Virus record (IMG/VR): IMGVR_UViG_3300031419_000007
Origin: a virus
Taxonomy: Duplodnaviria > Heunggongvirae > Uroviricota > Caudoviricetes
Strand: one strand, 5' to 3'
DNA: 64,000 bases
A program made the translations under genes and the position numbers. How positions within the stretch are numbered: the stretch's first letter is position 1; each line of letters opens with the position of its first letter. Positions 11,203 through 61,166 of this stretch are shown here, in pieces. The notes beneath the pieces were generated by a model that saw nothing but the letters and a program-made list of their open reading frames with translations, was not told the DNA's origin and did no database searches.

Positions 11203-13503
11203 TTAGATCTTGCAGGCGCCGCTTTCGCAGCCATCATCGGTCTCTTCCACTACCTCGAGTTCTGGCAGCGGTTTGTCCGCGTAGGCTTTGTCATCGGAAC
11301 CGTCACGGGTGTTGTGATAGTACCAGGTTTTGACACCGAGCTTGTAACCGTAGATCAGGTCTTTCAGCACTTGCTTGGCCGGGACCTTGCCTTCTGGGAA
11401 CTTCGCGGGGTCGTAGTTGGTGTTCGCAGAGATCGTCTGGTCGATGAACTTCTGCATGATCGCCACCTTCTGGATGTAGCCGACGTTGTCTGGCATCATC
11501 CACGTGGTTTCATACGCGTGGCGAAGTTCCGTCACACCGGGAACCACTTGGCGGAAGGAACCGTCTTTCGACTGCTTCACCGACACCAGGCCACGTGGTG
11601 GTTCAATACCGTTGGTGGCGTTGGAGATCTGGGAAGAGGTCTCGCTTGGCATCAGAGCTGACAGCGTAGAGTTACGCATGCCGTACTTCAAAATGTCCGC
11701 ACGCAGACTTTCCCAATCGCAATGCAGAGTGGCATCAACGATGGTATCAACGTCCTTCTTGTACGTGTCGATCGGCAGGATACCTTTCGAGTACGTCGTT
11801 TCGTGGAAGCCCGGGCAGGCACCGTCTTCTTTGGCCACGTTAACCGAGGCACGCATCAGATGGTACTGCAGCTGTTCGAACAGACGGTGCGTCTCGGTGT
11901 TGGACTTACCGGTGTCGGAGTACTTCAGACCTTTCTTCGCCATCCAGTACGCGTAGTTGATCACGCCCACACCCAGGGTGCGACGGTAATCGGAACCTTG
12001 CTTAGCGGACAGAACCGGATAGTCCTGGTAATCCAGCAGTTCGTTCAGGCCACGGACCAGCAGATCTGCCGCAACCGGAATCTCTTCTTCGGTCAGCACA
12101 CCTAAGTTGAACGCCGCCAGCGTACACAGAGCGATCTCACCGGAACCGTCGTTCACGTATTCCATCGGTTTGGTTGGCAGAGCGATTTCCAGGCACAGGT
12201 TGGACTGGCGGATCGGTGCGACCTTCGGATCGAACGGTGAATGCGTGTTGCAGTGGTCGACGTTCTGGATGTAGATGCGACCGGTGGAGGCACGCTCAGA
12301 AGCCAGCAGACCAAACAGTTCAGTCGCAGAGTAGGTATTGCGGCGGATGCTTGGGTCAGCTTCATAGAGCTCATACAGACGGGCGAACTCTTTCTGATCG
12401 GCGTAGAACGCGTCTAACAGGCCCGGGACATCAGCCGGCGAGAAGCAGGAGATCTTGCCATTCGACAGTAAACGCTGGTACAGGAAGCCGTTCAGCTGAA
12501 TGGCATAGTCCAGGTGGCGTTCACGGTTGTTCTCGGTACCGCGGTTGTTCTTCAGGACCAGCAGATCCATGACCTCGTAGTGCCACCCGGCGTAGAACAG
12601 CGTTGCTGCACCACCACGGACGCCACCCTGAGAACAGGACTTGACGGCAGCCTTGAAGAGCTTGATGAACGGGATCAGACCGGTGTGATTGGCTTCACCG
12701 TTACGGATCTTCGAGCCCAGCGCACGGATACGGGCAATGTCCAGACCGATGCCAGCACGTTGGGAGACGTACTTCACGATCGCTGAAGAAGCCGCGTTGA
12801 TCGAATCCAGTGAATCACCGGCAGAGATCAGCACGCAGGAAGAGAACTGGCGGGTTGGCGTACGCATGCCGGCCATGATCGGCGTCGGCAGGGAGATCTT
12901 GAAGGTTGACAGGTAGTCATAGAACTTCAGGACGTAGTCCATGCGGGTTTCTTTCGGGTAACGAGAGAACAGGCACGCAGAGATCATCATGTTGGCCATC
13001 TGCGGGCTCTCGTGCAGGTTGCCATCGACACGGTCCTGAACCAGGTATTTACCCTCGAGCTGTTTCACAGCAGCGTGGGCGTACAGGAAGTCACGCTCGT
13101 GATCGATCGCTTCGCTCATGACGTCCAGCTCGTAGTCGCCGTAATCCTTCAGGATTTGCTCGTCGTACAGGCCTTTTGACACCATGTGTTTTACAAACAG
13201 CGGGAAGTGCATCGGTTCAAACTGACCGAACACTTCTTTGCGGATACCAAACATCGCGGCACGGGCAGCCATGATCGCGTAGTCCGGTTCATCGGCGGTG
13301 ATCAGGTCGGCAATCGCCTTAACAACGGCACGGTGCAGGTCTTTGGTGGTGACACCCTCAACCACGTGCAGCTTAACGGTGAGCTCGACCTGGGAGGTGG
13401 AGACGTTTAAGTTCTCCCCTGCCCAAGTAATAACGCGACCAATCTTCTCCCAAGTGAAGGGTTCTTTGGTGCCGTCGCGTTTAATTACCTTGATATCTTG
13501 CAT
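11203..13503 (-). CDS. nrdA: ribonucleotide reductase class Ia alpha subunit
   Basis: 766 aa, colinear with E. coli NrdA: SLPTPIM, TRQFSSCVL, KSCSQGGVRGGAAT, NLCLEIALPT, SALMPSETSSQ, and C-terminal CESGACKI. Confidence 0.95.
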   Translation of the reverse strand: MQDIKVIKRDGTKEPFTWEKIGRVITWAGENLNVSTSQVELTVKLHVVEGVTTKDLHRAVVKAIADLITADEPDYAIMAARAAMFGIRKEVFGQFEPMHFPLFVKHMVSKGLYDEQILKDYGDYELDVMSEAIDHERDFLYAHAAVKQLEGKYLVQDRVDGNLHESPQMANMMISACLFSRYPKETRMDYVLKFYDYLSTFKISLPTPIMAGMRTPTRQFSSCVLISAGDSLDSINAASSAIVKYVSQRAGIGLDIARIRALGSKIRNGEANHTGLIPFIKLFKAAVKSCSQGGVRGGAATLFYAGWHYEVMDLLVLKNNRGTENNRERHLDYAIQLNGFLYQRLLSNGKISCFSPADVPGLLDAFYADQKEFARLYELYEADPSIRRNTYSATELFGLLASERASTGRIYIQNVDHCNTHSPFDPKVAPIRQSNLCLEIALPTKPMEYVNDGSGEIALCTLAAFNLGVLTEEEIPVAADLLVRGLNELLDYQDYPVLSAKQGSDYRRTLGVGVINYAYWMAKKGLKYSDTGKSNTETHRLFEQLQYHLMRASVNVAKEDGACPGFHETTYSKGILPIDTYKKDVDTIVDATLHCDWESLRADILKYGMRNSTLSALMPSETSSQISNATNGIEPPRGLVSVKQSKDGSFRQVVPGVTELRHAYETTWMMPDNVGYIQKVAIMQKFIDQTISANTNYDPAKFPEGKVPAKQVLKDLIYGYKLGVKTWYYHNTRDGSDDKAYADKPLPELEVVEETDDGCESGACKI

Positions 13504-14083
13504 TGATTTCTCCCATAATCTTAATCAAGTAGTCCGGGGTGATCGGACCGGTAAAGAAGTCGCCCCGGGCGATCTTGCTAAAAGCAAACAGGAACATGCC
13601 TTCAGCCATCTCCGGGGACCAGCCATAGATAGGAAGGCCGTCTGGATTGTGAGCCCAGCCCTCCCCTTTAGAATGCAGTAACTGCGTTGCCTCGACTTGG
13701 CACATCATGCTGTCGACGCGTTTAACTTCGGGGTAAACCGAGTGAACCCACTCAGGATCTAACTGGAATGCACGGTAGACACGATTCTGAACCTGCTCTT
13801 CGATCTTCGCGTAGTCTGGGAGGAACGGTTTGAATGGCGCCGGGATGTCCTGAATGAACGCTTCCGAGCCGTCGTGAACCAAACCGATCATCTGCAGTTC
13901 TGGCGGGAGCTGGGCTGCCACGTGAACCGAGTGTTCTGCCACGGAGTACGGGAAGTTGGTGTGGCCGTTGAAACGGTTAACCATGGAAAGAGCGTGAGCA
14001 ATGTTCTCGACAGTCAAGCCTTCGAGGTCATCGGATACTAAAGAAAAGTATTGACCATTGTAGGTCTCAATCATACCGGACAT
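13481..14083 (-). CDS. HD-domain phosphohydrolase (YfbR-like 5'-nucleotidase type)
   Basis: AEHSVHVA ... LVHDGSEAF give an H...HD...D HD-domain signature. Overlaps the start of nrdA. Confidence 0.6.
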   Translation of the reverse strand: MSGMIETYNGQYFSLVSDDLEGLTVENIAHALSMVNRFNGHTNFPYSVAEHSVHVAAQLPPELQMIGLVHDGSEAFIQDIPAPFKPFLPDYAKIEEQVQNRVYRAFQLDPEWVHSVYPEVKRVDSMMCQVEATQLLHSKGEGWAHNPDGLPIYGWSPEMAEGMFLFAFSKIARGDFFTGPITPDYLIKIMGEINARYQGN

Positions 14084-18281: not shown

Positions 18282-18788
18282 ATGTCTATGAAATTAAGTG
18301 CGGCCGGTCGGGCCGAGATGGAACAATTCGAAGGTCGTCGCAACAAGCTGTACGACGACAAGACGGGCAAAACGATTACCCGTGCTGCTGACGCCAAAGG
18401 TTTCCCAACCATCGGTGTCGGACACTTGGTGAAAGACGCATCGTTCGATGGCCGGACGCTGTCCGACGCAGAGATCGACGCTCTGTTTGCCAAGGATGTG
18501 GCGTGGGCAGAAGATGCCATCAACGGATTACGCTTACCACTTAAGCAGAATCAGTTTGATGCTCTTGTGTCCTTTGTGTACAATGTAGGTCCAGGCAAGA
18601 AAGGAGTCAAAGATGGACTTATTTGTTTACGCAGTGGTGAGCCTTCTAGCATTTTGCGAAATTTGCGGGCGGGTAACATTCAAGCAGCTGGTGACAGCTT
18701 GCTCTCCTGGACCCGCTCCGCTGGGGTCGTCATGGCCGGTCTGGTTAAGAGACGCCAGGCCGAACGGGCATTATTTCTTAGCGCTTAA
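18282..18788 (+). CDS. endolysin, GH24 (T4-lysozyme-like) muramidase
   Basis: Start MSMKLS with GGAGGTG RBS 8 nt upstream. EQFEGRRNKLYDDKTGKTITRAADAKGFPTIGVGH matches the E..G..L..Y.D..G..TIG.GH catalytic core; FDALVSFVYNVG also fits. The only plus-strand gene within the minus block. Confidence 0.8.
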   Translation: MSMKLSAAGRAEMEQFEGRRNKLYDDKTGKTITRAADAKGFPTIGVGHLVKDASFDGRTLSDAEIDALFAKDVAWAEDAINGLRLPLKQNQFDALVSFVYNVGPGKKGVKDGLICLRSGEPSSILRNLRAGNIQAAGDSLLSWTRSAGVVMAGLVKRRQAERALFLSA

Positions 18789-19607
18789 GGCCTGAGAAAG
18801 CTCGTAGCCAAGAGTCACAGTAGTCCTGAGGGATTCTGCCACAATCGGTGGAATCCCTTCCAGGAACGCAGTCCCTTCAAAGAGATCAAGTTTTTCCTTA
18901 AACCACACCACACCAAAGTTTGGATCCAACTGGGCCAAATCCTTCGCGTTATGCATGATGTCGAAACACTTGATCAATCGAACTTCCCACGCCGCTGCGA
19001 TCAACTTCTGCTGCGTCTTGTACTCACGGTCCACCCGGTTCACACCGACCGTCACGTGCGTTAAGCCGTCCACCCACAGGGCGACCTGCTCACCAAACTC
19101 AGACTCAATCTGCTGCAGGGTCACGTTCGTGTCTTCCACGACGTCGTGCAGCAAAGCGGCACACACCATGTTGGCTTGACGGACGGTGATCACTTGATCA
19201 ACGGACGGGTTGTGGATCATGACGTAGTTGGACACCGCCTGGGCAACCTTGACGACGTGGTGCTCGAAGTAGTCCAAGCCGGTGACCTTGCGGGTCTGAC
19301 CGACGTGGGCCTTTCGGGCCAAGTCATACGCGGCTTGCAGCCGAGTGTGCATCCCTGCGATGCCGAAATCTCGCTGGGTATCTTCACGGGGTACCATAGT
19401 CTTTACCCCTAGCAGATCAAGTAATTTATGGCAATAACTATGAACGCCAGCTTCATAAGAAGGATTATCATACACTTTACCCTCGATACGGTTGATTAAG
19501 CCCTGGGCAACGTCCAGGTCTAACTTAAACACGCGACCGAGCAATTCTTCACGAGCGTACGACATCCCCTTGTTGAGTTCTTGGGTGTCAAAAGTTACTT
19601 CACTCAT
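18771..19607 (-). CDS. HD-domain (p)ppGpp hydrolase, SpoT/RelA N-terminal-like
   Basis: ARKAHVGQTRKVTGLDYFEHHVVKVA ... AALLHDVVEDT is the RelA/SpoT HD hydrolase signature. 278 aa with no synthetase domain. Confidence 0.7.
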   Translation of the reverse strand: MSEVTFDTQELNKGMSYAREELLGRVFKLDLDVAQGLINRIEGKVYDNPSYEAGVHSYCHKLLDLLGVKTMVPREDTQRDFGIAGMHTRLQAAYDLARKAHVGQTRKVTGLDYFEHHVVKVAQAVSNYVMIHNPSVDQVITVRQANMVCAALLHDVVEDTNVTLQQIESEFGEQVALWVDGLTHVTVGVNRVDREYKTQQKLIAAAWEVRLIKCFDIMHNAKDLAQLDPNFGVVWFKEKLDLFEGTAFLEGIPPIVAESLRTTVTLGYELSQALSAKK

Positions 19608-29826: not shown

Positions 29827-30702
29827 TTACTTTTGCTTAGGTAAGTCAGGTACTTGCATCAACATCTTCGCATCGCTACCCATGACCGTTGGCAGCAGGC
29901 CGCTCCACTTATCGATCCACAGCATGGTCATAACTTCAGGATTCTTACGTAGAGCATCACCGCGAAGGTTGATCGAGTCGGCTTCAGCCTTAGCCTTGGC
30001 CGTAATAGAGTATGCTTCCGCATCGGCAGCTAGTTTCTTCGATTGGGCTTCACCACGAGCGGTTTCAATCTCTTTGTTCGCTTCCGCAGTACTCTGCTTC
30101 ACTTCCTGCTCACGCTGCAGGGTTTTCTGGTTTGCAGTCACTTTGGCGTTGATGCTCTCGGTAACGGAATCGGGGTAGCCAGGCTTACCAGACCAAGACA
30201 CGCTGATGATCTTGATCCCTGCAGGGTTCATTTCACGTTGCAAATCTTCCAGCACGCCATTCAAGAGCTCGGATTTACCACCGTCGATAAAGCGGTCGGT
30301 ATCCATGAGGTTTGCCCGGCGGACTAAAGAGTCAGAGATTTTCTGATACAGATCCTGATCGGTGATCTCATCGACGCCTTTGCGGTACGTCTGGAAGATG
30401 GTTTTCACTTTAGTTGGATCGATGAGGTACGCCACGCCGACCTGATAGCTGATGAAGGTACCGTCGGACATCTGGAAGTTAAACGGTTTGTCGTACGTCT
30501 TCATTTGCTTGAACGTTGGGAACGTGTACAGATCAGTGTTCCAACCGGTCCACTGACGGCCAACGCCGACCACTTCGCCTACGCCTTTTTCGTCGCCCAG
30601 TTTGTTGACAAGGATGCCAACTTCTCCTGGCTTAACGTACTCACATCCCGTCAAAGTCAGGACGCCAAACATCATCATGAATGCAATAAGAATATTACGC
30701 AT
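29827..30702 (-). CDS. SPFH/Band-7 (prohibitin/HflC-like) lipoprotein
   Basis: Lipobox LTGC after the signal sequence. PGEVGILVNKLG... SPFH core, then a coiled-coil Q/E/A/K-rich C-terminus. Confidence 0.6.
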   Translation of the reverse strand: MRNILIAFMMMFGVLTLTGCEYVKPGEVGILVNKLGDEKGVGEVVGVGRQWTGWNTDLYTFPTFKQMKTYDKPFNFQMSDGTFISYQVGVAYLIDPTKVKTIFQTYRKGVDEITDQDLYQKISDSLVRRANLMDTDRFIDGGKSELLNGVLEDLQREMNPAGIKIISVSWSGKPGYPDSVTESINAKVTANQKTLQREQEVKQSTAEANKEIETARGEAQSKKLAADAEAYSITAKAKAEADSINLRGDALRKNPEVMTMLWIDKWSGLLPTVMGSDAKMLMQVPDLPKQK

Positions 30703-35136: not shown

Positions 35137-35212
35137 TGGTGCCGCGGGATGGGCTCGAACCATCGACCTGGGGATTAAGAGTCCCTCGCTCTGCCAACTG
35201 AGCTACCACGGC
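35137..35212 (-). tRNA. tRNA-Lys (anticodon CUU)
   Basis: Hand-folded cloverleaf GCCGTGG...GGTTCGAGCC...ACCA with anticodon loop CTCTTAA. CCA encoded. Confidence 0.6.
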
Positions 35213-35213
35213 G

Positions 35214-35289
35214 TGGTACACCATACGAGGTTCGAACTCGTGTTCCTGCCGTGAAAGGGCAGTGTCCTGGACCGCTAGACGAATGGTGC
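35214..35289 (-). tRNA. tRNA-Glu (anticodon UUC)
   Basis: Close to E. coli tRNA-Glu: TTCGTCTAG...CCCTTTCACGG anticodon arm and TTCGAACC T-loop. Confidence 0.75.
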
Positions 35290-35291
35290 AA

Positions 35292-35366
35292 TGGTGGGTA
35301 AAGCTGGATTCGAACCAGCGACCTCTCGATTATCGGTCGAGTGCACTACCGCTGTGCTATTCACCC
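35292..35366 (-). tRNA. tRNA-Ile (anticodon GAU)
   Basis: Anticodon stem-loop CTCGACCGATAATCGAG. TTCGAATCC T-arm. CCA encoded. Confidence 0.7.
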
Positions 35367-35411
35367 TAAAAAGCAGAGATAGGTTAACCCAGTCTCTGCT
35401 CCCTGTCAAGT

Positions 35412-36203
35412 TTACTTCAAAACTTTCATTCCGTGTTGATCAGCGATGAACTCATCTTTGCGGACAATGATTTCGTCAATCCAAATTTTGGTGCCATCCT
35501 GATATTCCCGCCAGTGACCGGCCCGTAGATGGGGCGAACGGACAATATCTGTTGGATTATCACGAGGGTTAGTTATCTGTTTGACCGGACCCAGAGTTAA
35601 CGTTGATGCATTACTGATTTGTCCTCGGGCCTGCATAGGCTTCGGCGGGTTAAGCGTGATTTGCTCACGACCACGAGTATTCCATGCGTACAGCAGAGCA
35701 CTGGCAATAGGGACGATATCCAGCATGCACTCACGCATTCCTTGCTTCATCATCTGCAGCTCATCTTGATGATAATAACCTTGCGTCGTCAAGTTGAACC
35801 GGATGATACGGAGTTCGTTATCGAATACTACCGCCAGATTAGCCTGGATTGTCGGAGTGCTCCAGGGAATGAAGATCATAGGGAAGGAACCATAAGCGGG
35901 TCCCGTGCGGGTCAAGACGAAAGCTCGGAACTGCCCCGTCATTTCATCCTGGACAGTCACTTGCATTTCTTCAGAAGGCATCACTAAGAAAGGTGACGGC
36001 TCCAGACGGTGCATGTTTATAGGGTTATGCAATACGCCATGGTGGGCGAGCATAGCGGGTGGAATGAGCATCCCGGGATCTGCCGGCGAGTAAAAGCCGA
36101 GCGTATCAAAGAGGGATATCAATGGGGCTCGGAAATACTGCTGAGAGTATCCGTCTACGTGGATAAGGGATGCCGCTTGGTCGGTGTTTAAGTAAAGGTG
36201 CAT
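35412..36203 (-). CDS. hypothetical protein (263 aa)
   Basis: Start MHLYLNTDQA with GAGGAG RBS. Promoter-like motif at 36229-36238. Confidence 0.5.
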   Translation of the reverse strand: MHLYLNTDQAASLIHVDGYSQQYFRAPLISLFDTLGFYSPADPGMLIPPAMLAHHGVLHNPINMHRLEPSPFLVMPSEEMQVTVQDEMTGQFRAFVLTRTGPAYGSFPMIFIPWSTPTIQANLAVVFDNELRIIRFNLTTQGYYHQDELQMMKQGMRECMLDIVPIASALLYAWNTRGREQITLNPPKPMQARGQISNASTLTLGPVKQITNPRDNPTDIVRSPHLRAGHWREYQDGTKIWIDEIIVRKDEFIADQHGMKVLK

Positions 36204-36228
36204 AGTGATTCTCCTCTTTGTATGCACC

Positions 36229-36238
36229 TTTCTTATAC
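36229..36238 (-). promoter_or_regulatory. promoter-like motif GGTATAAGAA
   Basis: 26 nt upstream of the ATG at 36203. Confidence 0.4.
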
Positions 36239-36241
36239 CCT

Positions 36242-36442
36242 TTAGAGATCGACTTTCAGGACGTTCTCGTAGTAACGCTTGGCGCCTTGCCAAGTGCTAA
36301 TAGACTTCGAGTGGCCTACCAGCGGTTCGAGCACGACCATCTTCTTCCCGAGCGACTTCACCCGGCCGAGCTGGAGTTCCGCCCCGACCGGAGATGCCAC
36401 AATGTCACCAATCTCAAGCTTACGGTTCATCATGTCATACAT
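36242..36442 (-). CDS. KOW-like mini-protein, tandem paralog 1
   Basis: 66 aa. M..D..G..IGDxV...G motif shared by six adjacent ORFs; resembles the KOW motif of ribosomal L24 and NusG. Confidence 0.45.
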   Translation of the reverse strand: MYDMMNRKLEIGDIVASPVGAELQLGRVKSLGKKMVVLEPLVGHSKSISTWQGAKRYYENVLKVDL

Positions 36443-36632
36443 AGTCGGGCTCCTTCAGGATATCACGGGTGTATTTCTCGGTTTCACGCTTGCCGTCAGT
36501 CATGACGACGGCCTTACGGTCAGGATCTTCACCTTTAAAGCCGGTGATTTGGCCACGACGTAAACCACGGTCGTTGATCGAGGTGATGATGACCCGATCG
36601 CCGATACAAAGAGTGTTGCCTAAAAAATCAAG
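36435..36632 (-). CDS. KOW-like mini-protein, tandem paralog 2
   Basis: MLDFLGNTLCIGDRVIITS... GGAG RBS. Confidence 0.45.
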   Translation of the reverse strand, partial: LDFLGNTLCIGDRVIITSINDRGLRRGQITGFKGEDPDRKAVVMTDGKRETEKYTRDILKEPDYV

Positions 36633-36822
36633 CATTGAATTTCTCCACGATGGCAACCTGAGAAGAAGTCTTTAATACGGAGCCTGCGTGATCCAACGCT
36701 TGAATACGGATCATGCGGGAAGTGATTGCGACGACCCTGCCGTGGCGAAGATCTGCATAGCGACTGTGGGAATAAACCACGCGATCACCCACGTCGATTT
36801 CTTTACCTAAGGAATCACGCAT
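36628..36822 (-). CDS. KOW-like mini-protein, tandem paralog 3
   Basis: MRDSLGKEIDVGDRVVYSHS... Confidence 0.45.
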   Translation of the reverse strand: MRDSLGKEIDVGDRVVYSHSRYADLRHGRVVAITSRMIRIQALDHAGSVLKTSSQVAIVEKFNA

Positions 36823-37045
36823 CGATGTTCACCTTCACAAAACGGTCAGGGCCACCAGTCCAAGTGGAATTGCTGCCAGGAAGGCGAACACGGATCTTGG
36901 TTTTGGTAAACTCCACGACTTCGGCCACGGCCAGACGACCGGACGCAGACGCTGAGTACATTACCAGATCGCCAGCCATCAAAGGCTGATTGATGGCGTC
37001 ATGACGGGGGTCTACAATGTTCAAACGCTGATTATAGGGATCCAT
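36815..37045 (-). CDS. KOW-like mini-protein, tandem paralog 4
   Basis: Start MDPYNQRLNIVDP... with GGAG RBS, then MAGDLVMYSAS. Confidence 0.45.
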   Translation of the reverse strand: MDPYNQRLNIVDPRHDAINQPLMAGDLVMYSASASGRLAVAEVVEFTKTKIRVRLPGSNSTWTGGPDRFVKVNIDA

Positions 37046-37238
37046 GGGCTTTCTCCACGAGGGCAACTTGAGAAGCGTGACGACGAACTTTCTTGTTCGC
37101 AGCGTGCGGCTCTTCAATGAGAACACGGCAACCGTTAGGGGCCACCGCAATGACTTTACCAGTAACGATATCGCCACCGCACCAACCGGTCGCGACCACG
37201 TCGTTCAGGCCGACGGGCTTGCCATTACAATCCTTCAT
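37032..37238 (-). CDS. KOW-like mini-protein, tandem paralog 5
   Basis: MKDCNGKPVGLNDVVATGW... Confidence 0.45.
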   Translation of the reverse strand: MKDCNGKPVGLNDVVATGWCGGDIVTGKVIAVAPNGCRVLIEEPHAANKKVRRHASQVALVEKAHGSL

Positions 37239-54044: not shown

Positions 54045-54072
54045 AGGGCTCCTTAGGGAGCCCTTTTTGTTT
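54045..54072. terminator. bidirectional rho-independent terminator
   Basis: AGGGCTCC-TTAG-GGAGCCCT then TTTTGTTT. Lies between the convergent HU (+) gene and the minus gene. Confidence 0.7.
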
Positions 54073-54853
54073 ATTTCATGCCGATCAAATCAGCGATACG
54101 CTCTTCGAACTTCTCAGAGAAATGCTCAGCGGTGAACATCGCTTGACGCAGGCGACGTGTAGTCTTACGACCTACCGTCTTCGCCATATCCATCACGCCA
54201 TCGGCACCAGCCGGCACGTTGTTCTTCGCAAAGTACAGACCAATCTCCGACTCGACCGTCTGAATCACAGTCAGTTCAACCGGGGTCATGTACGTCCAGC
54301 CAGACTTGCGGCGGACCGTGTTAGCTTGGATATCGATGTCTTCGGCATCCAGTGCTTCAACCAGAATGTGCTTCACGACCTGTTCCATCACGTTCAGATG
54401 CTCAGGTGTCTCAGCTTGGCTTTCCAGCAGGTTGCTCAGGAAGTTGGTGCTCACCGCACCTAGGCCCTGGACGTAATCTTCCAGAATGCCTTCAGTGGTA
54501 GAACGCGGGTTAACCGCATAGCCGCGGGCCCAGTAGTTGTACAGGACGTCCACGCACTCTAAGCGGTAGCGGGCCAGCTTCTCACGGAGATCTTCACGGA
54601 CCTTGTTCGGGTTGATCGAGAAGAGGTACGCAGGAATGGATTTCACCGGCATGACCAGCATGTCCTGCTCGCGTCCGGAAGAATCGTGCGTTGTCATATG
54701 ACAACACATGTAGATAGGGTCATCGAGTTTGCGGGTTTGAGTACCCCAATCCAGACCTAAGTTTTCCACCAAACGACGCATCGCAACGCCAGGCTGTCCG
54801 TTTTCCAGCTCGACCACATCAATCATGTCGCCGTAGAATTCGATCTGTTTCAT
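54071..54853 (-). CDS. Ant/KilA-like paralog 3
   Basis: VKSIPAYLFSINPNKV ... RYRLECVDVLYNYWARGYAVNPR matches the family N-domain. Confidence 0.6.
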   Translation of the reverse strand: MKQIEFYGDMIDVVELENGQPGVAMRRLVENLGLDWGTQTRKLDDPIYMCCHMTTHDSSGREQDMLVMPVKSIPAYLFSINPNKVREDLREKLARYRLECVDVLYNYWARGYAVNPRSTTEGILEDYVQGLGAVSTNFLSNLLESQAETPEHLNVMEQVVKHILVEALDAEDIDIQANTVRRKSGWTYMTPVELTVIQTVESEIGLYFAKNNVPAGADGVMDMAKTVGRKTTRRLRQAMFTAEHFSEKFEERIADLIGMK

Positions 54854-54939: not shown

Positions 54940-55716
54940 TTACACTTTTTCCAGCACTTCGAACGCACGGTCAGCGATCTTAGACAGCTCGTTTTCAATG
55001 CCTTCGTCCAGGTACTGCAGGACATGTTCAACCGGTTGCTCTTCAGCGATCACGTGGTCGATCAGACGAACCGCAGAACGCTCCATGGCCGCCAGCAGGT
55101 AAGAGTCAACACCGAACACTTTGGTATCCACCGGCTCGTTCTCTGCCTTCATTGGGCCGCGACCCAGACGATCCCAGCAGAAGCAGATCAGGTGGTGATA
55201 CGTGTCGTCTTCATCCATTGCCACGCCGCCGGCCCGGCCGTAATCACACAGACGCTTAACCGCTTCGACCAGCTGCGGACGAGACAGTTTGCGGGCATCG
55301 CGGTATTTGGTGCTTTCAGTGTTGCCACGCTCCAGGCGAACGTTGATCGCCAGGCCTTTGTTCCAGTAGTCGTTCAGGACGTCGACGCACTCAGACTGGA
55401 AGAGTTCCAGACGGGCACGGGCTTCCGGGTTCAGAGCATCCGGGTTCATGGAGAACAGGAAAGCATGCAGCTTGGTCAGCGGGACTACGACTTCATCGTA
55501 CTGGCCACCTTTGCCATCGCTGACACGCAAGTTCTTGGCGCCAAAGCGACGGTCATTCTTCAGACGCTGATACTCATCGCCATAGTTCACGCCGATTGCT
55601 TCAACCAGACCGTGGATTGGGATCATCGGCTGGTCATGTTCATCCGGAACAACCTGGATGGTGAAGCCGAAAACGTTAACCTTATGGATATCTCTTAACA
55701 GGAAATGGGCAGACAT
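54940..55716 (-). CDS. Ant/KilA-like paralog 4
   Basis: LTKLHAFLFSMNPDAL ... FQSECVDVLNDYWNKGLAINVR. Confidence 0.6.
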   Translation of the reverse strand: MSAHFLLRDIHKVNVFGFTIQVVPDEHDQPMIPIHGLVEAIGVNYGDEYQRLKNDRRFGAKNLRVSDGKGGQYDEVVVPLTKLHAFLFSMNPDALNPEARARLELFQSECVDVLNDYWNKGLAINVRLERGNTESTKYRDARKLSRPQLVEAVKRLCDYGRAGGVAMDEDDTYHHLICFCWDRLGRGPMKAENEPVDTKVFGVDSYLLAAMERSAVRLIDHVIAEEQPVEHVLQYLDEGIENELSKIADRAFEVLEKV

Positions 55717-55787: not shown

Positions 55788-56621
55788 TTATCGAACCTCG
55801 GTTGTGGACCATAACTGCACACCGGCCATCAAACCTTCCGCAATTTGGTGGAAAGCGGCGATGAGTTCGGCGTCGAGCATGGTGATGGATTGTGACGGTG
55901 AGGATTGACTGACGATGACTTCATTCATGTAGCGGGCGATGAAGTCTTCCGCCACGGCCAGACGATACAGGTCGAACCCGTTCTTTGACTCTTCCGGTTT
56001 CATCACCAGGTTAGTGGGGAAGAATTCCATCAGAAGCATGTACAGGCCTTGCTGCAGTTTTTTCTTGCTGTACGGCTCACCGACCCGCTCGGCGTAGTCG
56101 ACAAACTGGTCCAGCACGCGGTCGAGGTTCTGTCGGGCAACCCGCCACATAGAGCCGAGTTTGGCGAATTGGGAGTCGGCATTAGGGTTAATCGCGATGC
56201 CTTGCATCCAATAGGAGTGCAGAGCTGCGACACATTCACCCTGGTACTTTTCCAGATTCTCACGCAGGTTGACGCGTTCCTCACAGATTTCGCCGTTAGC
56301 GTCGATGACTTCCTGGTTGAACCAGAGTTCATCCCGTTTGTCGATACGAATCGAGAAGAGCCACGCGTTGAGCTTACTCAGGGGTAGCACCACGTATTCA
56401 CTCTCGGTGGCGCCGTCGTTGACAACAATGATTTGAGCGAGGAACTTAAGTTCGAACTGTGCACGTTCCAACAATTCGTCGCGGAATGGATCAAGCCCAA
56501 GCTGGGAGATGAGGTCGTTGATGATAACGCCTTGCTCTTCCATTTCGGGGTACTTCACGGTGGGAATGAGACGGCCAATAAAATTGACCCACTGAATGTC
56601 TTCCGGGTAATAATGTTTCAT
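55788..56621 (-). CDS. Ant/KilA-like paralog 5
   Basis: Start MKHYYPED with GGAGGA RBS. LSKLNAWLFSIRIDK ... YQGECVAALHSYWMQGIAINPN. Confidence 0.55.
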   Translation of the reverse strand: MKHYYPEDIQWVNFIGRLIPTVKYPEMEEQGVIINDLISQLGLDPFRDELLERAQFELKFLAQIIVVNDGATESEYVVLPLSKLNAWLFSIRIDKRDELWFNQEVIDANGEICEERVNLRENLEKYQGECVAALHSYWMQGIAINPNADSQFAKLGSMWRVARQNLDRVLDQFVDYAERVGEPYSKKKLQQGLYMLLMEFFPTNLVMKPEESKNGFDLYRLAVAEDFIARYMNEVIVSQSSPSQSITMLDAELIAAFHQIAEGLMAGVQLWSTTEVR

Positions 56622-56637
56622 GGTGTGTTCCTCCATG

Positions 56638-56660: not shown

Positions 56661-56846
56661 TTACGTTGACGCTTTCAAGGCAGGATAAACGTCTTCATAC
56701 TGATCGATGGCCCGGGCAAGGTCGCCGAAGAAGCCGAGAGCGTTACCTGCCGTGTCCCGCAGGTTCTCGATCGCCCCGGGTTTCCCCAGAGCGGCTTCGA
56801 GTTGCCGCAACCGCAGGTAGATTTCCTGATGCGTCTCCATGATCAA
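56661..56846 (-). CDS. small hypothetical protein
   Basis: 61 aa ORF coupled to the RtcB gene. Confidence 0.35.
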   Translation of the reverse strand: MIMETHQEIYLRLRQLEAALGKPGAIENLRDTAGNALGFFGDLARAIDQYEDVYPALKAST

Positions 56847-57988
56847 CCTTTCACGTTAATGAGCGGTTTGATGTAATGGACGATGTCGACCAGGTCTTCC
56901 TGCAGCTCCATCACTTTGAAGATGTCCTTGTAGGCGAACGGGGATTCGTCGACCGTGCTCTGGCCAACGGTTGCCGCCGGGATATCCTTCATCGCTTCCT
57001 GGAACTGCTCCAGCGTCACTTGCTCTTTCGCCTTACGACGGGACAGCACGCGGCCGGCACCGTGAGAGGACGAGTTCATCGATTCCGGATTGCCGAGACC
57101 CCGCACGATGAAGCATCCATCACGCATGTTCCCTGGGATCACACCCATCATGCCCGGGTCCGCATGGGTCGCCCCTTTACGGTGGATCCAGCGGCCGTTA
57201 ACGTTTTCGGCGTGATTGTGGTTCCGGTTAATGAATTCGAGCGGCTGTAAGTTATTCACACCGATCACCTGAGCGATTGCCCGCATGGTCCGCTGAGCAA
57301 TCAGCTGACGGTTCGCCAGGGCAAACTGCAGGCCGTACTCCAGGTTCATGATGTAGTCATTGGCTTCCGGTGTCCCCATCACTAACGCGTGGGCTTCTTC
57401 CGGCTTGCCACCTTTAGCTGCGATCTTCATGTAATCCGACGCGATGCCGTGACCGACAGAACGCGAACCGGAGTGGATGATGATCCACAGTTCGGACTGC
57501 TCGTCATAACCAATCTCAACAAAGTGGTTACCACCACCCAGGGTACCGAGGCACTGCGGGCCGTATCCCACGTGGTCAATCACGTCTTTGGTGAAGCGAG
57601 CACCCAGGCCGTGAACAAACGGACGGGCTTCTTCCGCCTGGCGGGCAGAGTTCTTGGTGAATCCGACCGGCACGTGCTGACGGATCGCTTCGTAAATTGC
57701 CTGCTCGTAACCTTCGATGTCACTGGCAGAGATATTCAGTTTGGTTGCCGACATGCCGCAGCCGATATCATAGCCTACGAACGACGGATAGATGGTACCC
57801 ACAGTTGCCACGACAGCACCGATAGGCAGGACGTAGCCGGTATGAGCGTCCGGCATCAACGCACCCTGGACCACGTCAGGGAGGGCCATACAATTGACGA
57901 ACTGATCGATAGCGCCAGACTCCAGCACTTCCGCGTAGATTTTGTATGGCTTACCCAGGGCATCCAGTTTTTTGAGTTGCATTGTCAT
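56843..57988 (-). CDS. rtcB: RNA-splicing ligase RtcB (3'-phosphate/5'-hydroxyl RNA ligase)
   Basis: 381 aa with MPDAHTGYVLPIG, GYDIGCGM, GGGNHFVEIG and SSHGAGR. These are the RtcB metal- and GTP-binding motifs. Confidence 0.9.
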   Translation of the reverse strand: MTMQLKKLDALGKPYKIYAEVLESGAIDQFVNCMALPDVVQGALMPDAHTGYVLPIGAVVATVGTIYPSFVGYDIGCGMSATKLNISASDIEGYEQAIYEAIRQHVPVGFTKNSARQAEEARPFVHGLGARFTKDVIDHVGYGPQCLGTLGGGNHFVEIGYDEQSELWIIIHSGSRSVGHGIASDYMKIAAKGGKPEEAHALVMGTPEANDYIMNLEYGLQFALANRQLIAQRTMRAIAQVIGVNNLQPLEFINRNHNHAENVNGRWIHRKGATHADPGMMGVIPGNMRDGCFIVRGLGNPESMNSSSHGAGRVLSRRKAKEQVTLEQFQEAMKDIPAATVGQSTVDESPFAYKDIFKVMELQEDLVDIVHYIKPLINVKG

Positions 57989-58060
57989 ATCCTCTATTTG
58001 ATTGAGCTGTGAGCATAACCCATTATTGGCTAAAAAGGAAGCGTCGCTTCCCTTTAGTTG

Positions 58061-58669
58061 TTACCGTAACTGATTCGTCTGAAGCCACGCGGCGTCATGA
58101 CTCTGGTTGGAGTCGTAGAGAGCGAACTCGATCTCCATCTCTTTGTGGAATTCAAAGCCGTGGCCCGCCAGGACTTCACGCAGGGCTACTGTCTGAGAAT
58201 GGAAGGAGGTTGCCGTCGTGTGGTACTTACGAAGGGTCGCCATCCGGATTTCCCGACCGTTCAGGTACTTCTTGAACGCATTCCGGGAGACGTGGAAGTC
58301 CAGACGCCGCGAGAGATCCCGAAGCTCATCCACCTGCCGGTCCGTGCACAGCACTTGAATGTGGGACTCAAAGTACTGATTTGGAAGCGGTGTCGCCGCC
58401 CACGGGTGCTGCAGTGACGTTTCAAGCTTGGAGCGAATAACCCGGAAGCCAACAGCTTGCAGGACAGTGATCTGCTTGTTCATTTCCTTGACGGCTTCGT
58501 TCTGGTTTTCGCTCATCATCCGGTAGGACGACATCACGTCAACCAGCGGTTCAGCATCGATCACGATGGCCTTCGCGTTAAACGACGCACAAACCGATTG
58601 GAATTTCTCAAGCTCATCCGTACGGTTAGGGTCCAGCGGTACCGTCAAGTGGATTTCATACGGGATCAT
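58061..58669 (-). CDS. 2H phosphoesterase (LigT/cyclic phosphodiesterase-like)
   Basis: Two H-x-[ST]-x motifs: IHLTV near the N-terminus and FHVSR about 110 aa later. Confidence 0.45.
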   Translation of the reverse strand: MIPYEIHLTVPLDPNRTDELEKFQSVCASFNAKAIVIDAEPLVDVMSSYRMMSENQNEAVKEMNKQITVLQAVGFRVIRSKLETSLQHPWAATPLPNQYFESHIQVLCTDRQVDELRDLSRRLDFHVSRNAFKKYLNGREIRMATLRKYHTTATSFHSQTVALREVLAGHGFEFHKEMEIEFALYDSNQSHDAAWLQTNQLR

Positions 58670-58914
58670 ACGAGCTCCACTTTTACATCAATCAAATTGA
58701 CTTCAATCGCACGGACCGACGTATCGATGTTCATGGCCTCTAACTGCAGGTCATCCAGGTTCAGTACTCGAACCTCATGACTATCAAGGTATCCAATAAG
58801 ACGAAAAACCGTTTGACCGTTGTCATCAATCCGGAAGTAAGTTCCATACGATAGTTGGCGAAGAAGAACTGGCTGATCGGCGCCTTCAATGTACTGCGTG
58901 TTGATCTGAGTCAT
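58666..58914 (-). CDS. hypothetical protein
   Basis: 82 aa ORF. Confidence 0.45.
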   Translation of the reverse strand: MTQINTQYIEGADQPVLLRQLSYGTYFRIDDNGQTVFRLIGYLDSHEVRVLNLDDLQLEAMNIDTSVRAIEVNLIDVKVELV

Positions 58915-59165
58915 TTCGTATCTACCTCGATGCGGACGGCTTTGATATCAACCGGGCGGACAATCTGATTTGTCGGCGGGAAGATGGCAGTCAAATCCTC
59001 CATCACGAGGACCGTAGCAAAATCACTATGCCCGTGCCGCTCACAAGGGTTGACCAAGAGACGGTACAGCTGGTCACCCATTGTGTAAAAACTACCTTCG
59101 GGTAAATCCCCGAGTTCACGCTGAACTACATTGCCATTATTTACAGCTAAATGAATATTGGTCAT
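58911..59165 (-). CDS. hypothetical protein
   Basis: Start MTNIHLAVNNG with AGGAG RBS, preceded by a GGGCC-UUCG-GGCCC hairpin. Confidence 0.4.
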   Translation of the reverse strand: MTNIHLAVNNGNVVQRELGDLPEGSFYTMGDQLYRLLVNPCERHGHSDFATVLVMEDLTAIFPPTNQIVRPVDIKAVRIEVDTK

Positions 59166-59193: not shown

Positions 59194-59889
59194 TTAGAAA
59201 TTCCACGGCACGATGTGCTTCTCGATGCCTTCCCGAATGTACTGCATTGCTGTGTCAAAGTCTTGCCCATTCTCCACGCAGAAGACGACGACATCCGTGC
59301 ACAGCGTGAGTGCAAGGTTGATCATGTCTAACTGACGGGCGTCGAGGTTGTCTATCGGGGTCATAGCCCCAAAGTTCACCTCTCGTAAACACAACTGGAT
59401 AATCTCGGTAGCGTCACCGTCCAGTGCCTTTACGACTTGCCCCAATTGGTAGCGATTGTGGTTAACCAGCAATCGTCTCCAATCAAGTGCATGCTGCGAC
59501 GCCTGACTCTTCTCTAAGCGGGACCAGTGACGGTCTGCTTCCACCATGAAACGCTGACGGTACTCGGCAAGGTTACCGGCAACGTCAGGCTTCAGGGTTT
59601 GGATAGGGATTGAGTACAGGTAGTCGTTAATGTTGGCCAACGGGATGAACAGAGAGTTCTGCTTAATCCCGCCGTTATAAGAAAAGTCCTTGGAGATTTG
59701 TAGCGCTCTCACCAAGACCTCATCCCCGCTCAGTCGGTCACTCTCCGCAAGCAGTGGCAGACCGATTTGTTCCATCAAGCTTCGCATGTCCACGAAGACC
59801 ATCTCCCCGGTTTCATCCAGGAAGGTGGACACACCGGGACCGCCGTCAAGACTGACGTACTCGGCCCGGCGGAAAGTTAACGATTTCAT
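59194..59889 (-). CDS. Ant/KilA-like paralog 6
   Basis: IPLANINDYLYSIPIQTL ... YRQRFMVEADRHW. Confidence 0.5.
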   Translation of the reverse strand: MKSLTFRRAEYVSLDGGPGVSTFLDETGEMVFVDMRSLMEQIGLPLLAESDRLSGDEVLVRALQISKDFSYNGGIKQNSLFIPLANINDYLYSIPIQTLKPDVAGNLAEYRQRFMVEADRHWSRLEKSQASQHALDWRRLLVNHNRYQLGQVVKALDGDATEIIQLCLREVNFGAMTPIDNLDARQLDMINLALTLCTDVVVFCVENGQDFDTAMQYIREGIEKHIVPWNF

Positions 59890-60288: not shown

Positions 60289-60299
60289 CTTACTTATAC
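60289..60299 (-). promoter_or_regulatory. promoter-like motif GGTATAAGTAAGG
   Basis: 29 nt upstream of the ATG at 60260. Confidence 0.45.
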
Positions 60300-61124
60300 C
60301 ACCACAATGCGATCCTCGAGAATCTCAATGTAATGATCCCCAAAGCCTTTCATCAAAACCTCGCCCGGGTAGCCATGAGGGTTTGACACCACGCGACAGA
60401 TCTTGTCGTTGATTTCAATTTCATAGTTCGCCCGCTCATGGATATGGCCATGGATCCATACGTCAGGTTCGATACGCTCGTCCCGCAGCCAGTCGTCCAA
60501 TGCACTGGCATACGCGGCATTGACCTTGGCGGTTTCCGTATAGGAAGGCTTGCGATACTCCTTGCCGATCGACAGGAACGTCGGAGCGTGATGCGTCATG
60601 ACGATAAATCGCCACCCTTTCGGTAAAGACCGAGCAGCTTTCTTCAGGGAAACACGGGCTTGGTAGTGGAAAGCTCTCGTGTCTTCCGGGTTGAGGAACA
60701 TGTCGATACCCACCGGACGCTGATACAGGATGGACTTGTAGTCATTCATGCGGCGTTCAGCGGCTTTCATGCACTCCGGGTCATCATGGAAGTTCGTCCA
60801 CATGATGTCGCCCCAAATACGGGTTTTCTCCAGATGGAGATCCATGTAGTCTTGGTTCATCGAGTTAACCCCATTGATGTCCGCCAAGCCTTCGAGCACA
60901 CGGCCGTACTCCGCACCGTAGAACTCATGGTTACCCGGGATATGCAGGACCAGACCTTTGTCTGCTGCCAGTTCCAAAATGGTGCGGGTATGTGGGTGTC
61001 GCCACTCCCCAACGTCACCGGCGAACAGGAACCCGTCGTACTTCGTCATGTCAATCTTGCTGGTGAAAGGTTTAACGTCATCCCAGAAATCGGCGTGTAA
61101 ATCCGAGCCGTACCACAGTTTCAT
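60294..61124 (-). CDS. calcineurin-like metallophosphoesterase
   Basis: Start MKLWYGSDLHADF with GGGAGA RBS. GSDLHAD, GDVGEW, GNHEF and HGHIHE metallophosphatase motifs. Confidence 0.65.
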   Translation of the reverse strand: MKLWYGSDLHADFWDDVKPFTSKIDMTKYDGFLFAGDVGEWRHPHTRTILELAADKGLVLHIPGNHEFYGAEYGRVLEGLADINGVNSMNQDYMDLHLEKTRIWGDIMWTNFHDDPECMKAAERRMNDYKSILYQRPVGIDMFLNPEDTRAFHYQARVSLKKAARSLPKGWRFIVMTHHAPTFLSIGKEYRKPSYTETAKVNAAYASALDDWLRDERIEPDVWIHGHIHERANYEIEINDKICRVVSNPHGYPGEVLMKGFGDHYIEILEDRIVVV

Positions 61125-61166
61125 ATTGTCTCCCAAAAAATAAACGGGGAGTTACCTCCCCGCTTG

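Follow-up and report, generated by a model that had tools for sequence, protein, structure and literature searches.

An rtcB ligase gene and an orphan homolog of an AbiEii-linked antitoxin-position family side by side in an Arash-like phage

Do two neighboring genes of a tRNA-rich phage make up a single RNA repair cassette, or are they separate contributions to the protection of transfer RNA (tRNA)? The question arises from a 64,000-nucleotide (nt) stretch of viral DNA (Caudoviricetes; IMG/VR record IMGVR_UViG_3300031419_000007), called the window here, in which a gene for an RtcB-type RNA ligase and a gene for a protein of 202 amino acids (aa) lie side by side at positions 56843-58669. The initial annotation had taken the 202-aa protein for a 2H phosphoesterase of the LigT/cyclic phosphodiesterase (CPDase) type that forms a repair cassette with RtcB. 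The reading that we favor, at a probability of roughly 0.55, is that of two adjacent, separable modules for counter-defense or tRNA protection in a virulent Arash-like myovirus, namely, RtcB and an orphan protein of an antitoxin family. The theme of tRNA repair is retained in that the region is still read as concerned with the protection of tRNA from host attack, whereas the form of the cassette is altered.

The rtcB gene and its upstream neighbor

Exactly two open reading frames (ORFs) of the ORF list lie on the minus strand within 56843-58669, one encoding 381 aa and the other 202 aa:

56843..57988, minus strand: rtcB, encoding a 381-aa RNA 3'-phosphate/5'-OH ligase
58061..58669, minus strand: 202-aa gene (fam202), encoding a tandem ferredoxin-like protein, an orphan homolog of PADLOC "AbiEi"

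On the coding strand, fam202 comes first and rtcB second, with a gap of 72 nt between them. The 202-aa ORF reported initially is thus present, at 58061-58669 on the minus strand; it had been placed two genes on from RtcB and is in fact the next gene upstream of rtcB.

The 381-aa protein is a full-length RtcB in which all catalytic residues are kept, in agreement with what had been proposed from its hallmark motifs. It matched the Pfam RtcB family PF01139 over the whole profile (positions 1-426 of 426; E=1.7e-87, 294.9 bits versus a cut-off of 27) and PHROG 1075, "tRNA splicing ligase," at E=9e-111. PDAHTGY, GYDIGCGM, GGNHF, and SSHGAGR are all found in the translation, and an alignment with the RtcB proteins PH1602 of P. 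horikoshii and TTHA1785 of T. thermophilus, in which the catalytic segments are kept, placed these four motifs at catalytic positions. The metal-binding segments are retained as GYDIGCG (Asp/Cys), GGNHF (Asn/His), IHSGSRSVGH (His), and NHNH (His), and the histidine of GMP attachment is retained within SSHGAGR. In its full-length domain and identical catalytic residues, the protein resembles E. coli RtcB, PH1602, and the phage proteins of PHROG 1075, although it is shorter than the solved RtcBs (381 aa versus 481 to 530 aa) and scores under the NCBIfam cut-offs for bacterial RtcB equivalogs. Judged by its residues, it looks like an active GTP/Mn-dependent ligase.

This RtcB is an ordinary one, a further member of a common phage gene type that is already annotated. 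Of 50,697 phage records searched with tblastn, 702 contain an RtcB homolog, routinely annotated as RtcB-like RNA ligase, and the co-occurrence of RtcB, Rnl1, and Rnl2 with sets of tRNAs in large phages has already been reviewed (PMC7824862). The initial description of phage RtcB as "much less documented" was therefore an overstatement. The ortholog of the Salmonella phage Arash, Gp120, was found in the phage particle by proteomics (PMC10585845).

The role in tRNA repair that had been assigned to RtcB is a reasonable one. Its substrates would be 5'-OH ends on one side and 2',3'-cyclic-phosphate or 3'-phosphate ends on the other, and it could in this way reseal tRNAs or other RNAs that metal-independent ribonucleases of the host have cut, with no end-healing partner being needed. 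Tanaka and Shuman, in 2011, reportedly observed that RtcB takes 2',3'-cyclic-phosphate or 3'-phosphate ends directly. A CPDase partner is for this reason unnecessary, and a cassette of RtcB and CPDase is not called for on biochemical grounds.

Nor are the two genes obligately linked. The sole close relative among deposited phages is Arash, a myovirus whose genome of 180.8 kb carries 21 tRNAs and lacks lysogeny genes (PMC10585845). In Arash, fam202 corresponds to gp122 and rtcB to gp120. In the Arash-like synteny, a metallophosphoesterase gene, a 123-aa gene, a gene with a P22 antirepressor N-terminal domain (P22_AR_N), and small ORFs precede fam202, which is followed by rtcB, more P22_AR_N genes, and HU. 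The rtcB gene lies directly downstream of fam202 in at least eight distinct Arash-like relatives. In two otherwise syntenic relatives (loci L008/L025 and L047), fam202 is kept and rtcB is cleanly absent, which shows that rtcB is a dispensable insertion and not an obligate partner of fam202. In the same genomes, RtcB displays 74 to 95% aa identity and the 202-aa protein 40 to 78%; the genes flanking rtcB among the syntenic relatives display 40 to 60%. The presence/absence polymorphism, together with a conservation higher than that of the flanking genes, suggests that rtcB has recently spread horizontally among these phages. The 202-aa protein is evolving much faster than RtcB, which fits a conflict gene.

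Family, fold, and neighborhoods of the 202-aa protein

No Pfam or NCBIfam family was found for the 202-aa protein. Profile searches placed it instead with models that PADLOC names "AbiEi," and not with 2H enzymes as proposed initially. PDLC02279 matched at E=1.6e-32 (residues 3-197 against profile positions 2-190 of 190), and PDLC02277 matched at E=2.5e-29, also over the full length. The bacterial homologs matched PADLOC "AbiEi" models at 1e-62 to 1e-81. By these profile matches, the 202-aa protein is assigned to the PDLC02279/PDLC02277 "AbiEi" family. A profile search of 1.84 billion representatives returned 2131 clusters (50% identity) at E<=1e-3. Among the 150 strongest matches, 44 are proteins of 300 to 345 aa that are extended at the N terminus by about 105 residues. 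In 3 of 10 longer members scanned, the extension was MazG-like at a score under the Pfam gathering threshold; a partial match to PHROG 1247 is explained by this MazG-like fusion architecture. Bacterial members are frequent in actinomycetes and occur also in Xanthomonadales, Planctomycetota, and Deinococcus. Several of them carry the automatic UniRef name "Ankyrin"; no ankyrin repeat was detected, and the label looks like a propagated misannotation.

The AlphaFold2 model of the 202-aa protein, obtained with 29 homologs in the alignment, reached a predicted local distance difference test (pLDDT) score of 94.3. It is composed of two tandem β-α-β-β-α-β (ferredoxin-like) units. Across 46 members, M46, R79, K81, E83, E101, H103, S128, N130, T145, R147, E181, D186, D192, and W195 are invariant, and E5, H7, T9, Y99, and H126 are kept in at least 90%. 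The conserved residues alternate along the strands, an arrangement that in the model implies one polar, enzyme-like face per sheet. A CYTH or triphosphate tunnel metalloenzyme (TTM) fold, an idea that came from the alternating Glu, Arg, and Lys residues, was rejected; no TTM structure was among the fold matches, and the topology is the duplicated β-α-β-β-α-β. The structural homologs in BFVD are all uncharacterized and come from phages of Aeromonas, Sinorhizobium, Acinetobacter, and Rheinheimera and from the giant viruses Bodo saltans virus, Fadolivirus, Yasminevirus, and Klosneuvirus.

The assignment to the LigT/CPDase 2H enzymes was not borne out by profile, profile-profile, or fold tests. 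At E<=0.1, no 2H family of Pfam or NCBIfam matched the 202-aa protein or five homologs, while the control, E. coli ThpR, matched LigT_PEase at 3e-22 in the same search. The hhalign comparison of the 46-sequence family profile with ThpR gave a probability of 0.55%, and no LigT/CPDase structure was returned in fold searches with the 202-aa model. The two H-x-T/S motifs behind the assignment are present, and at least 90% of the family keep them, but they are not diagnostic of 2H enzymes. The pattern H-x-T/S occurs three times (HLTV at 7, HVSR at 126, and HTTA at 150), and the strict form, H-hydrophobic-T/S-hydrophobic, fits HLTV alone. Since 32% of shuffles of the protein contain two or more H-x-S/T, the presence of such motifs is by itself not beyond chance. 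In the 46-sequence alignment, S128 never varies and H7/T9 and H126 hardly do, and by this conservation the H7/T9 and H126/S128 pairs appear to be real functional motifs. The AlphaFold2 model places the H7 motif on strand 1 of repeat 1 and the H126 motif on strand 2 of repeat 2, which are non-equivalent positions; the residue equivalent to H7 by symmetry is H103, which is invariant.

A healing of RNA ends for RtcB by a 2H phosphoesterase would draw on several likenesses to LigT/ThpR, CPDase, and the phage enzyme Acb1. Besides the two conserved motifs, the 202-aa protein has the two-lobed α+β internal duplication and polar strand residues of these enzymes, its C-terminal stretch "EFaLYdS" resembles "EFTLYAS" of ThpR, and the genes of its family adjoin RNA ligases. 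These likenesses are outweighed by the missing profile, profile-profile, and structural matches, by the non-equivalence of the motif strands, by the many other invariant residues that are foreign to the 2H signature, and by the facts that RtcB needs no CPDase and that relatives keep fam202 without rtcB. We conclude that fam202 does not encode a 2H phosphoesterase and that an end-healing role of this type beside RtcB is highly improbable.

Roughly ten contexts in bacteria and twenty independent ones in viruses were sampled for the neighborhoods of the family. In nine of ten distinct bacterial contexts, the family gene lies immediately upstream of a gene for an AbiEii/DUF1814 nucleotidyltransferase (NTase), usually with a 4-nt overlap (Lysobacter, L022; metagenomic, L041 and L042; Streptomyces, L049; Singulisphaera, L050; L051/52; Actinomadura, L054 and L055; and a Deinococcus plasmid, L056). 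These contexts cover at least four phyla, and the tenth is a stand-alone copy of Thermomonospora. The partner toxins match AbiEii toxin models at 1e-82 to 1e-98 and retain the RGS and DxD motifs. The characterized DUF1814 toxins, MenT1/3 and AbiEii, are NTases that are silenced, in the case of MenT and AbiEii, by antitoxin-induced autophosphorylation (PMC7450476, PMC10435456, PMC11375011, and a 2026 AbiEii preprint). The MenT toxins extend or block the 3' acceptor ends of tRNA and so stop translation (PMC7450476, PMC10435456, PMC11375011).

By their upstream, overlapping position next to the AbiEii gene, and by their PADLOC label, the bacterial homologs are like AbiEi and MenA. They are unlike canonical AbiEi (COG5340), which consists of a winged helix-turn-helix and an antitoxicity domain, in that their fold is the tandem ferredoxin-like one and their invariant polar residues make up an enzyme-like surface. 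The 202-aa protein had no match to Pfam AbiEi and, in sequence and profile searches, no PDB match at E<=10, and canonical AbiEi and MenA were absent among its fold matches. In the literature searched, we found no experiment on antitoxin activity of the family.

Some neighborhoods hold further genes of note. On the plasmid of Deinococcus sp. QL22 (L056, 2595-6944), a gene for a PF09414 RNA ligase is divergent from the family gene, which is followed by AbiEii, DUF6915, and a gene for an LRV/HEAT-repeat protein, and this locus may be a combined toxin/repair island. In L016, a PARP+WGR gene adjoins the family member, and SIR2 lies near the Thermomonospora copy.

In the window and in every phage locus examined, a hidden Markov model built from the partner toxins detected no AbiEii. 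The phage copies are therefore orphans, and fam202 of the window is an orphan homolog that, unlike the AbiEi and MenA systems, has no toxin partner and is not part of an AbiE system. The phage copies adjoin RtcB, Rnl1, an Rnl2-like ligase, or tRNA genes. Rnl1 lies 0.2 to 0.8 kb upstream of the family gene in five phiM12-like loci, and in phiM12 a CCA-adding enzyme is found nearby as well. A PF09414 RNA ligase is encoded 2.7 kb from the family gene in Xanthomonas phage XacN1, and tRNA genes lie within 3 kb of it in six other lineages. That the family recurs beside ligases of three unrelated kinds, beside tRNA genes, and beside NTases with tRNA ends as their substrate speaks for a role centered on RNA or tRNA. 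We regard the gene identities, the fold class, the family membership, and the neighborhoods as established.

In XacN1, the protein ORF260 (L004, 1590-2240), which GenBank names "2'-5' RNA ligase," is a PF09414 RNA ligase (E=6e-26) and not LigT.

Candidate roles of the 202-aa protein

The antitoxin activity, the target, and any chemistry of the 202-aa protein are matters that we infer. Most likely, the phage protein would neutralize host toxins of the AbiEii type, which act on tRNA 3' ends, or else the damage that they cause. It could do so (a) by binding the toxin and bringing about its silencing, in the manner of canonical AbiEi and MenA, or (b) by acting enzymatically on the modified RNA 3' end and reversing the damage. 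We lean slightly toward the second mechanism because bacterial and phage members share the same invariant polar residues, because structural homologs exist in giant viruses, because stand-alone and MazG-fused forms occur, and because the linkage to ligases is recurrent. A bolder proposal, which we hold only tentatively, is that the family is an unrecognized class of RNA 3'-end repair enzymes, that is, of antitoxins that strip the nucleotides added by AbiEii or MenT from tRNA in a tandem-ferredoxin active site. Phages and giant viruses would then have captured the family, sometimes fused to MazG, in a tRNA protection toolkit beside RNA ligases and their own tRNAs.

Several points weigh against the reading of the phage protein as an antitoxin-family counter-defense factor. 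The PADLOC label "AbiEi" reflects gene association and not experiment, and Pfam, PDB sequence, and fold searches brought out no sequence or fold similarity of the family to the characterized AbiEi or MenA. The phage copies are only about 26 to 30% identical to the toxin-linked bacterial ones. Giant viruses that infect protists have homologs as well, the gene of Thermomonospora stands alone, and fusions to a MazG-like NTP pyrophosphatase are frequent, all of which would be better explained by a general nucleotide or RNA enzyme than by a toxin-specific inhibitor. The AbiE of S. agalactiae did not protect against 32 coliphages. Moreover, the bacterial sample consisted of fewer than 12 contexts, while the family has thousands of members.

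One such general enzyme would process or heal RNA ends by means of a new fold; the AbiEii-like partners of the bacterial members would then be repair NTases, and the phage gene would not be specifically directed against AbiE. The NTases of the Pol-beta type that are associated with RNA ligases (RlaP) provide a precedent for this, and the occurrence beside ligases of three unrelated types (RtcB, Rnl1, and PF09414), the grouping of ligase, family member, and NTase on the Deinococcus plasmid, the CCA-adding enzyme near the phiM12 copy, and the invariance of the polar residues across bacteria and phages, with structural homologs in giant viruses, are all consistent with it. A ligase is, however, nearby in only 1 of 10 bacterial contexts, and most phage loci have none within the examined flank. 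The strong matches of the partners to AbiEii toxin models and the layout of a small upstream gene overlapping the NTase gene, which is classic for toxin-antitoxin pairs, also argue for toxins and not repair enzymes, and we consider general RNA-end repair rather unlikely.

The 202-aa protein might, alternatively, act on free nucleotides or on a small-molecule signal, for instance, by hydrolyzing or sequestering a product derived from nucleoside triphosphates (NTPs), in which case the RtcB neighborhood would be incidental. A set of conserved residues rich in Arg, Lys, and Glu suits the binding of phosphate, and the MazG-like extension, which would belong to an NTP pyrophosphatase, points in the same direction where it was seen (sub-threshold in 3 of the 10 scanned, among the extended forms that make up 44 of the top 150 members, and in the PHROG 1247 fusion), as do the PARP+WGR and SIR2 neighbors. 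Structure and profile searches revealed no similarity to known nucleotide hydrolases or sponges, however, and the main conserved partner is an RNA-modifying NTase and not a signal synthase. A role of this kind appears improbable.

Surrounding genes and what the locus may mean

The remaining features of the window that bear on the locus are the following:

58037..58051, minus strand: GC hairpin GGAAGCGACGCTTCC then TTTTTA, in the gap between fam202 and rtcB, from a consensus scan
58666..58914, minus strand: 82-aa ORF, the stop of which overlaps the start of fam202 by 4 nt
56661..56846, minus strand: 61-aa ORF, overlapping the rtcB stop by 4 nt
60294..61136, minus strand: calcineurin-like metallophosphoesterase (Pfam Metallophos, E=5.9e-11; PHROG 1649, E=3.5e-37)
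54071-54853, 54940-55716, 55788-56636, and 59194-59889, all minus strand: P22_AR_N paralogs
29827-30702, minus strand: SPFH/Band_7 protein
35137..49889, minus strand: 22 tRNA genes found by ARAGORN, all on one strand
13481-14083: YfbR-like HD protein
18771..19607, minus strand: HD_4 (RelA/SpoT-type hydrolase) protein of 278 aa (Pfam HD_4, E=1e-12)

The hairpin GGAAGCGACGCTTCC at 58037..58051 could act as a weak terminator or mark a processing site, as judged from its consensus match. Homologs of the 82-aa ORF occupy the same position in L001, L006, L007, and L008; Pfam and PHROG scans gave no family match for it. The small ORFs just 5' of fam202 (58666-58914 and about 58911-59165, minus strand) resemble tandem paralogs of about 80 aa, and relatives hold three or four genes of about 80 aa at the same spot, again with no family match. 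Homologs of the 61-aa ORF lie 3' of rtcB in L006 and L007 and straight after fam202 in L008, which has no rtcB.

The metallophosphoesterase gene is kept in synteny about 1.6 to 2.2 kb upstream of fam202 in the Arash-like relatives. Calcineurin-like metallophosphoesterases can heal RNA ends that carry a 2',3'-cyclic phosphate, as known from CthPnkp. Its enzyme class thus makes this protein a more plausible candidate for end healing than the 202-aa protein. At least four paralogs with P22_AR_N flank the rtcB region, and this expansion is also seen in relatives; two P22_AR_N proteins of Arash, Gp117 and Gp118, have been reported in the particle proteome. In Aeromonas phage LAh_9, genes for an SPFH protein and for a DUF2828 protein lie a few kilobases away from the copy of the 202-aa family.

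Of the companion genes listed in the initial annotation, the tRNAs and two HD proteins were recovered, whereas the PTH2-like and KptA-like genes were not; no match to PTH2 (PF01981) or KptA/Tpt1 (PF01885) was found among the 82 window ORFs in scans with E thresholds of 0.1, 0.01, and 0.001. Two tRNAs, at 38015-38090 and 47143-47219 (both minus strand), are unusual, one having a CTA anticodon of the amber suppressor type (called "Pyl" by ARAGORN) and the other an undetermined two-base anticodon call. Among the window ORFs scanned, no RtcA, RtcR, or archease was found. The HD_4 protein resembles small alarmone hydrolases. Such hydrolases act as antitoxins by removing the pyrophosphate that toxSAS enzymes place on the CCA ends of tRNA. 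The HD_4 protein is a possible additional factor that protects tRNA 3' ends or counters alarmones.

The locus invites comparison with known phage strategies. T4 answers the cleavage of tRNA by its host with Pnkp and Rnl1, and the phiM12-like relatives of the 202-aa family indeed adjoin Rnl1. The route of the window differs from that of T4 in being based on direct ligation by RtcB, and no kinase-phosphatase was found among the ORFs scanned. For fam202, the closer parallel is the use of orphan antitoxins. T4 Dmd is a phage-encoded orphan antitoxin that serves counter-defense, and DarG-like enzymes of phages act against DarTG (PMC11825919). Like these, fam202 is a stand-alone phage homolog of a gene in antitoxin position, lies among accessory genes, and evolves fast. 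Unlike in the DarG and Dmd cases, the opposing toxin would be an NTase acting on tRNA and not an ADP-ribosyltransferase or an RNase. Our literature searches found no phage anti-AbiE factor and no phage AbiEi homolog. The 202-aa family is a catalogued, uncharacterized antitoxin-position family, and its orphan phage copies did not appear as candidate anti-AbiE factors in the literature searched.

The RtcB of the window, being common and annotated, adds little, and the useful result is the gene next to it. Through that gene, AbiEii/DUF1814 toxins and RNA ligases are connected with a very large hypothetical family whose members are found in phages, in giant viruses, and in four or more bacterial phyla. 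If the phage copies do neutralize abortive infection by AbiE, they would be the first counter-defense for AbiE in the literature searched and would widen the strategy of orphan antitoxins to a system other than DarTG. Should the protein turn out to be an enzyme, its fold would be new to the chemistry of RNA ends, and damage to the acceptor end of tRNA would be reversed in a way that is new as well.

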